A stretch of DNA of 38,877 bases, taken from positions 1 through 38,877 of the forward strand of contig JBDLWC010000037.1 in NCBI GenBank assembly GCA_039804485.1, read 5' to 3'. The notes beneath the pieces are model-generated. The model ran no database searches. It saw only the letters and a program-made list of their open reading frames with translations, and was not told the origin of the DNA. Shown here one piece after another: positions 24,067 through 29,594 of the stretch. Each line of letters opens with the position of its first letter. Position 1 is the stretch's first letter. The stretch comes from Verrucomicrobiota bacterium. Lineage in GTDB: Bacteria; Verrucomicrobiota; Verrucomicrobiia; Opitutales; UBA953. The translations under genes were made by a program, and so were the position numbers.

Positions 24067-26376
24067 TCAACGCTTCCCGGCGGCCTTGCCGCGCTCGAGC
24101 GTGAGGCGGAGGGAGGGCGCGGTGGGCGACTTCTTCGACTTCGCGAGCGACTCGGGGTCGCCGGCATGGACGAGCTCCCCGCCGGCGTTGCCGCCTTCGG
24201 GTCCGATCTCGAGCACCCAGTCCGCCTCGGCGATGACGTCGGGGTGGTGCTCGATGACGACCACGGTGTGGCCTTGGTCGACGAGCGCGTGCAGGAGCTC
24301 GATGAGGCGACGGCAATCGGCCTGGTGCAATCCGATGGTCGGTTCTTCCAGGACGTAGAGGTTGGGCCGGATCTCGCCGCGCGAACGTTCGCGGAAGGTG
24401 GGGAGGCCTTGGGCGAGTTCGCTGACGAGCTTCAGGCGCTGGGCTTCGCCGCCGGAAAGGGTCGGGCTGCTCTGCCCGAGGGTGAGGTAGCCGAGGCCGG
24501 TCTTGACCATCAGCCCGCAGAGGTCGCCGAGCTTGGCGTCGAACGAAAGGAACGCGGCCGCTTCCTCGAAGGTCATGGCGAGGAGGTCGGCGGCGGATCT
24601 GCCGTTCCAGCGGATCGCCTTGGCGGCGGCGCCGTAGCGCGTGCCCGCGCATTCTTCGCACGGCACGTAGGTGTCGGGCAGGAAGCTCATCTCGAGCCTG
24701 ATCCGTCCGGCGCCCGAACACGCTTCGCAGCGTCCGCCCGAAGTGTTGAAGGAGAAGAAGCCGGCGGCATGCCCGCGGATGGCGGCTTCCGGCAGCGAAG
24801 CCAGACGTTCGCGGATGAGGTCCCAGGCGCCGATATAAGTCGCCGGCGTCGAGCGCGGCGTCTTGCCGATGGGCTCCTGGTCGACCACCACCAGCTGGCG
24901 GAAGCCCTTCAGCCCGGTCAGCGAGCCGAAAGCCGGCTGGCCGGCGTTCGAGACCACGCTGAGCGCTTCCTTCCCCGTGACGCCGTCCTTCTTCTTGGCG
25001 ATCGCCGCGCGCGCGGCGGGAGCGAAGAGGTCCGTCACGAAGGTCGACTTGCCCGCGCCCGAGACCCCGCAGACGACGGTCAGGCGACCCGCGGGGACGC
25101 GCGCGTCGAAGCCCTTGAGGTTGCGCAGGTTCGCGTCCTTGAGGCGGATCCACTCCGCCGGCGCGCCTTTGCCTTCGACCGGCCGGCGGGCGCCGCGGAG
25201 CGGGTGCGGGATGGCCTCCTTGAGGAAGCGTCCCGTCACGGAGTCCGGCTGCTTTTCCAGCGCGGCCGCGGTGCCTTGGGCGACGATGCGTCCTCCGTGC
25301 ACGCCCGCGCCGGGCCCCATGTCCACCACCAGGTCGGCGGCTCGCATGGTGTCCTCGTCGTGTTCCACGACCAGGACGGTGTTGCCGCGGTCACGCAGGC
25401 CTTTGAGCGATTCGATCAGCCGGTCGTTGTCCCGCGGATGCAGGCCGATGCTGGGTTCGTCCAGGACGTACAGCGCCCCGGAGAGCGTCGAGCCCAGTTG
25501 CGCCGCCAGGCGGATGCGCTGGGCTTCCCCGCCCGAGAGCGTGTCGGCTCCGCGGTCGAGCGCGAGGTAGCCCAGCCCCACCGAGTCGAGGAAGCGGAGG
25601 CGCGCGGCGATTTCGGGCAGGAGCGCTCCGACGATGGCTTTCTCGCGGTCGGCGAGCTTCAGTCCGGACAGGAAGGCCAGGGCTTCGTCGGGTTGCAGGC
25701 GAAGCAGTCCGGGCAGCGAGAGCGAGCGCCCCTTCGGGCCCGCGAGCCTGACCGATCGGCCGATCGGGCCGAGGCGCTGCCCCTGGCAGGTCGGGCAGAC
25801 GGCTTCGCCCACGCGGTCGGCGATGGCGTTCTCGTTGATGGACTCCTCTTCGTCGGAGGAGAACGTCGTCACCTCCAGGCCGTGGCCGCGGCAATCCGGA
25901 CACCAGCCGCGCGGCGAGTTCCAGGACAGGTGCTTCGGGTCGACCTCGGGGAACGATTCGCCGGTCGCAGGGTCGCTGCGCGCGGTCGAGAGATAGGCGA
26001 CCTGCCGCCCCTGCGGGTCGAGGAGCACGCAGGCCTGCTTGCCCGCGAGGAGGGTCTGACGCACGAGCGCGCGCAACGCCTTCTCGCCGGATTCCTCGGT
26101 CTCGTCGGGCAGCTCGATGAGGCCGTCGGCGCGCAGCTGGCCGAAGACCGCGTCGACATCGTGCTCCGAATAACGGTCCAGCCCGGCGAAGCCGTCGACC
26201 GGAAGGAGCTTCCCGTCGCAACGCAGGGTCCGCAGGCCCTTCGTCTCCGCCCATTCGGCGAGGGGACGGTGGTGGCCTTTGCGGGCGCGCACCAGGGGAG
26301 CGGCGAGGAGCAGGGCGCCTTTCTTCAGCGCCTTCACCTTCCGCGCCACGAGGCGGACCACGGCGTCCTCGGTCAT
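24067..26376 (-). CDS. UvrA-like ABC ATPase, distal part of unit 2 of a fused double-UvrA gene
   Basis: In order it has APLVRARKGHH, CPDCRGHG/CPTCQGQRL, LSGGEAQRIRL, YVLDEPSIGLH, VVEHDEDTM, GVSGAGKST, CEACSGAG/CEECAGTRY, LSGGEAQRLKL and VIEHHPDV. The ATG at 26376 overlaps the stop of the upstream frame, and UvrA-like homology in this frame begins a few codons before that ATG. Confidence 0.8.
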   Translation of the reverse strand: MTEDAVVRLVARKVKALKKGALLLAAPLVRARKGHHRPLAEWAETKGLRTLRCDGKLLPVDGFAGLDRYSEHDVDAVFGQLRADGLIELPDETEESGEKALRALVRQTLLAGKQACVLLDPQGRQVAYLSTARSDPATGESFPEVDPKHLSWNSPRGWCPDCRGHGLEVTTFSSDEEESINENAIADRVGEAVCPTCQGQRLGPIGRSVRLAGPKGRSLSLPGLLRLQPDEALAFLSGLKLADREKAIVGALLPEIAARLRFLDSVGLGYLALDRGADTLSGGEAQRIRLAAQLGSTLSGALYVLDEPSIGLHPRDNDRLIESLKGLRDRGNTVLVVEHDEDTMRAADLVVDMGPGAGVHGGRIVAQGTAAALEKQPDSVTGRFLKEAIPHPLRGARRPVEGKGAPAEWIRLKDANLRNLKGFDARVPAGRLTVVCGVSGAGKSTFVTDLFAPAARAAIAKKKDGVTGKEALSVVSNAGQPAFGSLTGLKGFRQLVVVDQEPIGKTPRSTPATYIGAWDLIRERLASLPEAAIRGHAAGFFSFNTSGGRCEACSGAGRIRLEMSFLPDTYVPCEECAGTRYGAAAKAIRWNGRSAADLLAMTFEEAAAFLSFDAKLGDLCGLMVKTGLGYLTLGQSSPTLSGGEAQRLKLVSELAQGLPTFRERSRGEIRPNLYVLEEPTIGLHQADCRRLIELLHALVDQGHTVVVIEHHPDVIAEADWVLEIGPEGGNAGGELVHAGDPESLAKSKKSPTAPSLRLTLERGKAAGKR

Positions 26377-29300: not shown

Positions 29301-29594
29301 GTTGCCCTGCTTGATGGCGACGGAGGGACGGACGTTTTCCGCGGAGTCGAGCGCCGGCGAAGGCAGGAGCTCGAGGAACTGGCGGACGTAAGGGCTGAAC
29401 GTCTCGACGTAGCGGCGCTGGCCCTCGGCGTGCAGCGTGTCGAACACCAGCGACGACTTGCCGGCGCCGCTGAGGCCCGTGACCACGACCAGCTTGCCGA
29501 CGGGGATGTCGACATCGAACCCTTTCAGGTTGTTCTGGCGGACGCCGCGGAGGCGGATGGCGTCTGGTCGGGCGGCGGGCATCGGACCCGTCAA
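26373..29594 (-). CDS. UvrA-like ABC ATPase: a complete unit 1 fused in frame to the N-terminal ATP-binding segment of unit 2
   Basis: Unit 1 has GLSGAGKSS, CPECRGFG/CPKCQGRRF, LSGGEVQR, VVEHDESVM, GVSGSGKST, CERCGGAG/CPSCNGRRF, LSGGEAQR and VVEHHLDV. A linker, ARGDEAFGAAAEPASRERPTA, follows. Unit 2 then starts with ISLRGAREHNLKDV...GVSGSGKSS...YLRVLFARAG. The start is TTG at 29594 or ATG at 29582. Confidence 0.8.
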   Translation of the reverse strand: MTGPMPAARPDAIRLRGVRQNNLKGFDVDIPVGKLVVVTGLSGAGKSSLVFDTLHAEGQRRYVETFSPYVRQFLELLPSPALDSAENVRPSVAIKQGNAVRTSRSTVGTMTELCDWFKVWFAHRAELIDPASGEAIRPRGPDAAWEDSLRRFAGQAISLAFAVAKPAALDWPTIAEEFTRAGFSRAFAGGRRLRLGEDSVTADAAELLVIQDRVVISADQASRFHEAALAAFRLGGARLRLLDDEGRELARYSEALESPVDGRRFRPASPALFSFNSPVGACPECRGFGRVIGLDWAKIVPNPALTLAEGAIAPFQGTVYGESQKDLARACRKAGVPLDVPWKKLSATHRRFVEDGEPGYEPGEYDSKWYGVRGFFRWLEGTTYKMHVRVFLSRWRAYEPCPKCQGRRFREESLCWRWQGRTLPELYALPVTDLRQRLAPLAPKDSRHPADHALEAILARLGYLEAVGLGYLALDRLSRTLSGGEVQRVNLTSCLGACLADTVFVLDEPSVGMHARDLSRMVGILRGLVAQGNTVVVVEHDESVMRAADWLIEIGPRPGAAGGHLLYQGPPAGILKTKGSATADWLSGRRSPEVRAPRPVGDTTPRLRVGGATVNNLRDFACSLPLGRLVGLCGVSGSGKSTLLHQVIGRRDPESGDEAAELKWVKFDRDPVEVALVDQSPATRTPRSNPALYVGAWDAIRTLLGNSPEAKAAGLTPSHFSFNAGEGRCERCGGAGWETVEMQFVSDVALPCPSCNGRRFRDEVLSFRFDGKSVGDLLAMSVSEARAFLGGRTPASGQLACLEEVGLGYLAMGQPLTTLSGGEAQRLKLVRYLSKVDTRQGGALLLLDEPTTGLHRDDVARLIGLLHRLTEAGHSLIVVEHHLDVLKACDWLLEMGPEAGPAGGRLVAEGTPAQVAAGETVTGRFLARGDEAFGAAAEPASRERPTAISLRGAREHNLKDVSLEIPHGSLTVMTGVSGSGKSSLAFDILFAEGQRRFLECVSAYARQFVEQLPKPDIDSLTGLPPTVAIEQRVTRGSAKSTVATVTEVAQYLRVLFARAGVLHSPATGNRSKR

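Follow-up and report, generated by a model that had tools for sequence, protein, structure and literature searches.

How can a symmetric protein produce an asymmetric result? In bacterial nucleotide excision repair (NER), a symmetric UvrA homodimer must yield an asymmetric outcome, with one UvrB on the damaged strand, and two parts of this problem are still debated: the stoichiometry of the UvrA-UvrB complex, A2B2 or A2B1, and the split of labor between the two insertion domains (PMC7835731, PMC11985968). Here we describe a gene that places the question within one polypeptide. It lies on the minus strand, at 24067..29582, of a 38,877-nucleotide (nt) contig of about 70% G+C from a Verrucomicrobiota bacterium of the Opitutales (JBDLWC010000037.1, assembly GCA_039804485.1), which was analyzed at its full length and is called the window below; all coordinates are positions in the window, and every feature of the gene is on the minus strand. 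The gene encodes a fused UvrA, a single polypeptide with two diverged UvrA units and four nucleotide-binding domains (NBDs), in which unit 1 keeps the insertion (DNA-clamping) domain together with a diverged UvrB-binding domain, and unit 2 has a canonical UvrB-binding domain and no insertion domain. Since the halves are joined covalently and differ in their accessory domains, a mutation can be confined to a single "protomer", which is impossible in a homodimer, and a widespread natural fused protein of this kind could make the stoichiometry and clamp questions directly testable.

The window as given shows the gene as two overlapping open reading frames (ORFs) in different frames, ORF 26373..29594 with 1,073 amino acids (aa) and ORF 24067..26598 with 843 aa. 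A first-pass annotation of the same DNA had read the pair as one fused gene in need of a single frame correction, with a product of about 1,842 aa. Both ORFs and all the motifs that it quoted are present, at coordinates verified by translation, and the correction comes down to a single missing base between 26390 and 26391. The two ORFs are one gene split by this missing base. Delimited by intact homologues of 1,838 aa, the whole gene runs from an ATG at 29580-29582 to a stop codon at 24067-24069 and measures 5,516 nt in the window, one fewer than the 5,517 nt of its relatives; read from the ATG, the joined product has 1,838 aa, and from an upstream TTG 1,842 aa. At the deletion site (26390..26391), the sequence is GGC GAG CCG in the relatives and GGC -AA CCG in the window. 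Four related loci carry an intact 5,517-nt ORF, namely L001 (97% nucleotide identity), L004 (96%), and L002 and L003 (85%), and a protein homologue with 99% aa identity (P0001) runs uninterrupted through 1,838 aa. The break is the sole gap in a 5,517-column alignment with L001, L002 and L003, and the comparison with L004 shows no other uncompensated indel within the gene. When codons are compared with those of L001, synonymous and non-synonymous differences stand at 67:11 upstream of the break and at 66:14 downstream of it in the corrected frame, and this comparison found no further stop codon in the corrected frame of the window gene, so the gene shows no decay.

The missing base is either an error of the consensus or an inactivating mutation of very recent date, and it is no feature of the family. 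If the mutation is real, uvrA is a recent pseudogene in this genome, with a 1,069-aa product made of unit 1, 121 aa of unit 2 and four out-of-frame residues followed by a stop, and a functional unit 2 is missing. We regard this as a substantial possibility that falls somewhat short of probable: the deletion lies outside any long homopolymer (GGGC[G]AAC) and has no uncompensated companion in the ~10 kb aligned to L001 and L004, so that the assembly shows no general excess of indels, while the downstream ratio of synonymous to non-synonymous differences equals the upstream one, with no sign of extra damage, the gene is intact in every relative examined, and one consensus error accounts for the data equally well. 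Two further ORFs lie opposite uvrA on the plus strand, 24166..26586 (806 aa) and 26406..30146 (1,246 aa); these are shadow ORFs typical of 70% G+C, not genes.

The joined 1,838-aa sequence, used as query, recovered over 100 uninterrupted homologues of 1,835-1,975 aa, whose identity ranges from 99% (P0001) down to 55% (P0116, from Rubellicoccus peritrichatus) and which, where names are given, are called "excinuclease ABC subunit UvrA" and are assigned to Opitutales or Verrucomicrobiota. Each is a single ORF with neither a stop nor a start in the linker, and the in-frame fusion with four NBDs that had been proposed for this locus is thereby upheld. Unit 1, a complete class-I-like UvrA unit, occupies 26817..29582 (aa 1-922). 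It is followed by a 21-aa inter-unit linker (ARGDEAFGAAAEPASRERPTA, 26754..26816, aa 923-943), which in the window likewise holds no stop and no start, then by the N-terminus of unit 2 (26391..26753, aa 944-1064), which is still in the frame of ORF 26373..29594 and bears the Walker A motif GVSGSGKSS (26646..26672), and finally by the remainder of unit 2 (24070..26390, aa 1065-1838) in the frame of ORF 24067..26598. The linker is unconserved, varying among 15 homologues in both length (~20-60 aa) and sequence, and in the AlphaFold2 (AF2) model its predicted local distance difference test score (pLDDT) drops below 50 at aa 931-943. One homologue of greater length, P0099 (2,403 aa), contains an exact internal repeat of ~560 aa, which extends from NBD-II of unit 1 through the linker into the start of unit 2 and has similar TGVSGSGKST Walker A motifs at its borders; a three-unit protein seems a less likely reading than an artefact of assembly at the gene's own internal repeat.

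Each unit is 35-38% identical to solved class I UvrA over its full length, and the two are only 35-43% identical to each other. Against UvrA of Geobacillus stearothermophilus (Bst UvrA, 2r6f) they give full-length alignments with E values of 1e-196 and 4e-213. Scored on the 99% identical P0001 and summed over three stretches from the two units, the protein passes the cutoffs of both NF001503 (1698.4 bits against 1147) and TIGR00630 (1654.5 against 729.8). Together, the Pfam, NCBIfam and Protein Data Bank matches argue overwhelmingly for membership in the UvrA family, beyond anything expected by chance.

The insertion domain of unit 2 is truly gone. In its Zn2 module (25786..25902), 31 mostly acidic residues stand between CPDC (aa 1228) and CPTC (aa 1263), forming an acidic loop, RGHGLEVTTFSSDEEESINENAIADRVGEAV, that replaces the domain and is modeled as disordered (pLDDT 44). 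Residues 326-417 of Bst UvrA have no counterpart in unit 2, the column occupancy of the insertion-domain hidden Markov model (HMM) is 0.18, and the deletion is kept in 14 of the 14 homologues inspected, down to 55% identity, in agreement with the earlier reading that this domain appeared to be deleted. The UvrB-binding domain of the same unit is canonical (25930..26417, aa 1056-1218; PF17760, E 4e-10) and is modeled with a pLDDT of 82-92. Its RKGHH motif (26269..26283, within APLVRARKGHH) is formed by R46, K47, G48, H49 and H50 of the domain, all invariant in 14 homologues. The Zn3 module of the unit (CEAC...CEEC, 24649..24729) was placed by alignment to 2r6f and by translation. The AF2 model, which covers unit 2 without its first 121 residues, has a pLDDT of 82.8 and finds its best matches in class I UvrA, namely 3uwx_A and 3zqj_A (TMq 0.77). 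At aa ~1150-1175 the UvrB-binding domain also carries an extra acidic hairpin, LRADGLIELPDETEESGEK, modeled as two short strands; this is present in closer relatives and is shortened or absent in distant family members.

Unit 1 keeps its insertion domain (28395..28730, aa 285-396; PF17755 UvrA_DNA-bind, E 1.7e-10). Its Zn2 pairs, CPEC (aa 278) and CPKC (aa 397), enclose ~115 residues, the insertion-domain column occupancy is 1.0, and the Pfam match to PF17755 is limited to this unit. From aa 5 to 923 the unit aligns in one stretch to residues 20-953 of Bst UvrA, and its AF2 model (pLDDT 81.7) is best matched by 3uwx_A, the full-length UvrA from a UvrA-UvrB complex, with a template-modeling (TM) score of 0.81, against 0.64-0.67 for class II UvrA2. 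The Zn3 module with its hairpin (CERC...CPSC) lies at 27330..27410, again from the alignment to 2r6f and the translation.

It is in the UvrB-binding domain of unit 1 that our account parts from the first-pass annotation, which held this domain to have been lost. A first Pfam scan did find PF17760 in unit 2 only, and unit 1 is without the RKGxH motif, as had been noticed and as is now confirmed, and without most of the similarity to the canonical PF17760 profile. The segment in question (28779..29231, aa 118-268), which has no RKGxH and no Zn1 cysteines, is nevertheless a full-sized, diverged homologue of the domain: it has normal length and is colinear with the Bacillus (Bst) protein, it aligns to the unit 2 domain with an hhalign probability of 97.6% (E 3.6e-12), and PF17760 matches the unit-1 segments of 14 out of 14 family members (best E 8.5e-13; E 0.012 for the window copy). 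AF2 models it with a pLDDT of 86-94 and gives the domains of both units the same order of elements, alpha-beta-alpha-beta-beta-beta-alpha-beta-beta. Within the family, its mean column identity is 53%, against 60-61% for the rest of the protein, and 14 of its columns are invariant. The idea of a complementary domain loss is therefore half right: the insertion domain of unit 2 is a true loss, and the UvrB-binding domain of unit 1 has diverged and has not been lost.

The four ATPase sites carry the Walker A motifs GLSGAGKSS, GVSGSGKST, GVSGSGKSS and GVSGAGKST and four LSGGE signatures. Walker A, signature, Walker B glutamate and H-loop are conserved at all four in 15 family members, and by these motifs all four ABC ATPase sites are catalytically intact. 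The Walker B motif of NBD-II in unit 2 (LYVLEEPTIGLH, 24325..24360) reads LEEPT, with a glutamate for the usual aspartate. LEEPT is invariant in the 15 family members, occurs in 4 of the 43 clusters of the same architecture and is rare in other fused UvrAs; it may mark a slowed or regulatory site at the fourth ATPase position. The CxxC pairs of Zn2 and Zn3 are present in both units. Those of Zn1 are missing from unit 1, as had been noted, but their absence is not peculiar to it, since across the family unit 2 lacks them as well.

Canonical class I UvrA (E. coli; G. stearothermophilus 2r6f and 3uwx; M. tuberculosis 3zqj and 9ga3) shares with each unit the ABC-ABC core, Zn2, Zn3 and the signature domains. 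Unlike the homodimeric chains of class I, ~940 aa each, the fused protein has two units in one chain, a single insertion domain where class I has two, a canonical UvrB-binding domain beside a diverged one, no Zn1 cysteines in either unit, and a Glu-Glu Walker B at the fourth ATPase site. Of the features that define class I, it exceeds the HMM cutoffs and has two NBDs per unit and, in both units, the PF17760-type domain set in signature domain I; an insertion domain in every protomer and the complete set of three zinc modules are absent.

How this architecture arose can be approached through other fused UvrAs. An exhaustive cluster search over 1.84 billion representatives (50%-identity clusters), with the first ORF, which spans the junction, as query, gave 150 best clusters that are nearly all double-length (~1,550-2,340 aa), and many of them align unbroken through the junction. 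We coded each unit by HMM-column occupancy, with B or b for a UvrB-binding domain that is present or absent and I or i likewise for the insertion domain. The window's type, BI-Bi, accounts for 43 clusters plus 7 truncated ones. Both units lack the UvrB-binding domain in the tandem class II type, bI-bI (30 clusters), and both are complete in BI-BI (28 clusters), of which P0159, from a Chlamydiales bacterium, and P0133, from a bacterium of candidate division CSSED10-310, are named examples. Six clusters have a first unit without the insertion domain (Bi-BI), and another six a second unit without the UvrB-binding domain (BI-bI). The tandem class II fusions of these 30 clusters are ~1,600 aa long (P0196, P0203-P0205, P0246 and P0268 among others).

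Fusion as such had been suspected not to be unprecedented, and so it proves: beside the double-length clusters, there is a 1,809-position NCBIfam model for double-length UvrA (NF001885), and the C. trachomatis uvrA, ct333, measures 5,361 bp and 1,786 aa, with transposon insertions in it being tolerated in cell culture (PMC6686042). The chlamydial protein (ct333; NF001885/PRK00635) is likewise a tandem two-unit ORF named UvrA, from the related Planctomycetes-Verrucomicrobia-Chlamydiae (PVC) phyla, and colinear with the window protein through the junction. The window protein stands outside the NF001885 equivalog, however, with 1021.6 bits against a cutoff of 3054 and a best stretch that aligns residues 9-1242 to positions 6-1221, and the chlamydial P0159 differs in having both domains in both units, a stronger UvrB-binding domain in unit 1 and a separate group in a neighbor-joining (NJ) tree. 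In this rough tree, built on the C-terminal 455 aligned columns of each unit, three groups can be told apart, in each of which the sequences of unit 1 and those of unit 2 have a clade of their own. BI-Bi and BI-BI proteins occur together in the window's group, and BI-Bi members are found in the Chlamydiales group as well. P0122, with both domains in both units, gives reciprocal best matches of unit 1 with unit 1 and of unit 2 with unit 2. This pattern suggests that fusion preceded the loss of the insertion domain and that the second unit lost it more than once, by the tree on at least two or three separate occasions; the window's architecture would then go back to a fused, fully duplicated ancestor in which the second insertion domain was deleted.

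In the full-text literature searched, we found no description of fused UvrA architectures, the sole relevant statement being the size of ct333 (PMC6686042), and in searchable full text no description of the asymmetric domain complement, its distribution or its link to the debate on stoichiometry and asymmetry. The fusion is already in the databases, unremarked. Genes of ~1,800 aa are named plain "UvrA" there, and their varying architecture is unrecorded, whether both domains are in both units, the second or the first unit lacks the insertion domain, or both units lack the UvrB-binding domain. A 2008 review in DNA Repair by Goosen and Moolenaar is said to list duplicated UvrA classes.

What might the asymmetry do? 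In M. tuberculosis UvrA on damaged DNA, cryo-EM shows a "recognition" insertion domain holding the lesion, and UvrB first binds the protomer whose "support" insertion domain has been released; within one protomer, UvrB at the UvrB-binding domain and the insertion domain on DNA are mutually exclusive, and an A2B1 complex was observed (PMC11985968). In E. coli, telling damaged DNA apart from undamaged DNA needs the insertion domain, and the UvrB-binding domain is essential (PMC3025350). The division of domains between units 1 and 2 mirrors the M. tuberculosis picture, with the lesion-holding and the UvrB-binding protomers of the M. tuberculosis UvrA2UvrB1-DNA complex (PMC11985968) matching the split between the units, and from this domain anatomy, itself solid, we infer a division of roles. 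The covalent pseudo-dimer would stand in for the usual UvrA2 homodimer, its two units packing together within one chain as UvrA2 protomers do. The single insertion domain of unit 1 would clamp the lesion, and UvrB would be recruited mainly via unit 2, so that unit 1 would be a permanent recognition half and unit 2 a permanent UvrB-loading half. The outcome would be an A2B1-like complex with a fixed orientation on the lesion, in which the asymmetry between recognition and support insertion domains, transient in M. tuberculosis UvrA, would be built in permanently. The M. tuberculosis asymmetry arises by induction, in a homodimer that is itself symmetric and can go on to take up a second UvrB, whereas here the asymmetry is encoded in the sequence, and functional equivalence would hold by analogy. 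A symmetric ATPase dimer that works asymmetrically has a counterpart with two specialized, non-identical halves elsewhere, in the MutS homodimer and the eukaryotic MSH2-MSH6; unlike the fused UvrA, these belong to another protein family, and the MSH halves are encoded by separate genes and not by a fusion. On balance, we lean toward the fused protein being this lineage's NER damage sensor, with recognition and loading asymmetry built in, a reading that we hold to be rather probable. If the split of roles is true, the sequence fixes both how the sensor is oriented on the lesion and which side the single UvrB is loaded on, and it offers a handle on A2B2 versus A2B1 and on the choice of the damaged strand.

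Several observations weigh against this division of roles. The UvrB-binding domain of unit 1 is, by its conserved columns, under purifying selection, and it may still bind UvrB or another partner, in which case the single-UvrB part of the model would fall. RKGxH is a candidate motif for contact with UvrB, not an established one, and the census that speaks for the division, with an RKGxH-like motif in both units in only 1 of the 113 clusters of the five commonest architectures, is a crude one by regular expression. Packing of the two units as an intramolecular pseudo-dimer is likewise something that we infer, and the NJ tree has neither support values nor a single-unit outgroup. Nor is the complementary pattern general, since it is unit 1 that has the stronger UvrB-binding domain in the distant P0207, which has the same BI-Bi architecture (PF17760 scores of 101 bits in unit 1 and 67 in unit 2), and in P0159 from Chlamydiales (BI-BI; 116 and 83). 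We considered and dropped a general rule by which the better UvrB-binding domain would stay with whichever unit lacks the insertion domain: it holds for the window clade (the window itself has 16 bits in unit 1 and 40 in unit 2) and for P0122 (BI-BI; 41 and 74), P0133 (BI-BI; none and 51) and P0173 (Bi-BI; 92 and 38), and it fails for P0207 and P0159. It is a tentative and, in our view, rather doubtful generalization that fused UvrAs show a NER sensor to need one insertion domain and one canonical UvrB-binding site, split between unit 1 and unit 2 in Opitutia, with several lineages having lost the second insertion domain independently.

The main rival is a fused NER sensor with two partners, in which the diverged domain of unit 1 docks a second UvrB through a co-evolved surface, or docks Mfd, and the asymmetry is confined to the insertion domain. 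That the unit-1 segment is confidently folded in the model, keeps its 14 invariant columns and is recognizably PF17760 would be consistent with a retained partner, and Mfd binds UvrA via its UvrB-homology module at the same UvrA surface (PMC3025350); we nevertheless think this possible but on the unlikely side, given that unit 1 of the window scores far below unit 2 on PF17760 and that RKGxH, invariant in unit 2, is missing from unit 1.

Less probable still, and in our judgment improbable, is an accessory paralogue like the class II proteins UvrA2, DrrC and Ecm16, working outside canonical NER, for example in tolerance of DNA-binding compounds, with a canonical uvrA elsewhere in the genome. 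Paralogous UvrAs are common, and the domain complement here does depart from that of canonical UvrA. Class II UvrA (D. radiodurans UvrA2 2vf7, DrrC, Ecm16 7sh1) also consists of UvrA-family ATPases with altered accessory domains, but it is defined by a UvrB-binding domain that is entirely absent (PMC5128194, PMC3167621) and it keeps the insertion domain, whereas here both units have a UvrB-binding-fold domain of ~150 residues and one has no insertion domain; the structural match is also the poorer one, and the antibiotic resistance or biosynthetic cluster in which class II accessory genes often lie is lacking around the gene. The scores exceed the cutoffs of the UvrA equivalogs, the gene is near-universal in Opitutia within a conserved housekeeping context, and in Chlamydia trachomatis it is the double-length gene that is annotated as uvrA. 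Context, range and domain content thus make an accessory role unlikely, and the suggestion in the first-pass annotation of a drug-DNA sensor finds no support in a neighborhood of housekeeping genes with no biosynthetic cluster. Finally, two ordinary adjacent uvrA paralogues, or two halves joined by programmed ribosomal frameshifting, can be dismissed as vanishingly improbable despite the two overlapping ORFs in different frames that the window presents, since the junction at 26754-26816 is in frame and stop-free in the window and in all homologues, intact single-ORF homologues rule out two genes, the break lies 121 codons downstream of the unit junction and so is no gene boundary, and the relatives need no frameshift and the site has no slippery heptamer.

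The genes around uvrA fit a NER sensor of the housekeeping kind. On one flank lie the S10/str ribosomal operon and genes for a TPR protein, sufE, ctaA, ctaB and 5-formyl-tetrahydrofolate cyclo-ligase; on the other are genes for a transglutaminase-like protein, pdxJ, acpS, a YjeF-family protein and dprA, and this synteny is conserved among relatives. No resistance or biosynthetic genes were found in the neighborhood or elsewhere in the window, and neither the window ORFs scanned nor the genes annotated in the syntenic loci include a further UvrA-like gene. When one genome was scanned for each species, the unit-2 motif (DPK[HND][FL]SWN / GWCPxCRGH) was found at confirmed loci in at least 541 of these genomes; among the best 80, the majority bear the labels Opitutia, Opitutales, Puniceicoccaceae or Verrucomicrobiota, whereas five have other names and one is called "bacterium". 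From these loci and labels, the fused UvrA is a lineage-wide trait: it is the UvrA of a verrucomicrobial group from freshwater and soil, and very common there. Backed by the conserved synteny and by this range, a housekeeping role is most likely.

Directly downstream of uvrA, at 21842..24031 on the minus strand, is a conserved gene of ~714-729 aa with a weak match to the transglutaminase core; it always adjoins uvrA in L001-L003, and the two may be co-transcribed. Elsewhere the window has bioB and genes for an aminotransferase, a tail-specific protease and an ABC ATPase. Opposite the protease gene, a 1,240-aa ORF (5072..8794, plus strand) has no Pfam match. Among the loci of the motif scan, L005, L010, L032, L068 and L073 have an Opitutia-type unit-2 segment with 56-96% aa identity under the titles of other taxa (Polynucleobacter meluiroseus, uncultured Klebsiella sp., Akkermansia muciniphila and uncultured Enterobacteriaceae); these labels of metagenome-assembled genomes are almost certainly wrong.

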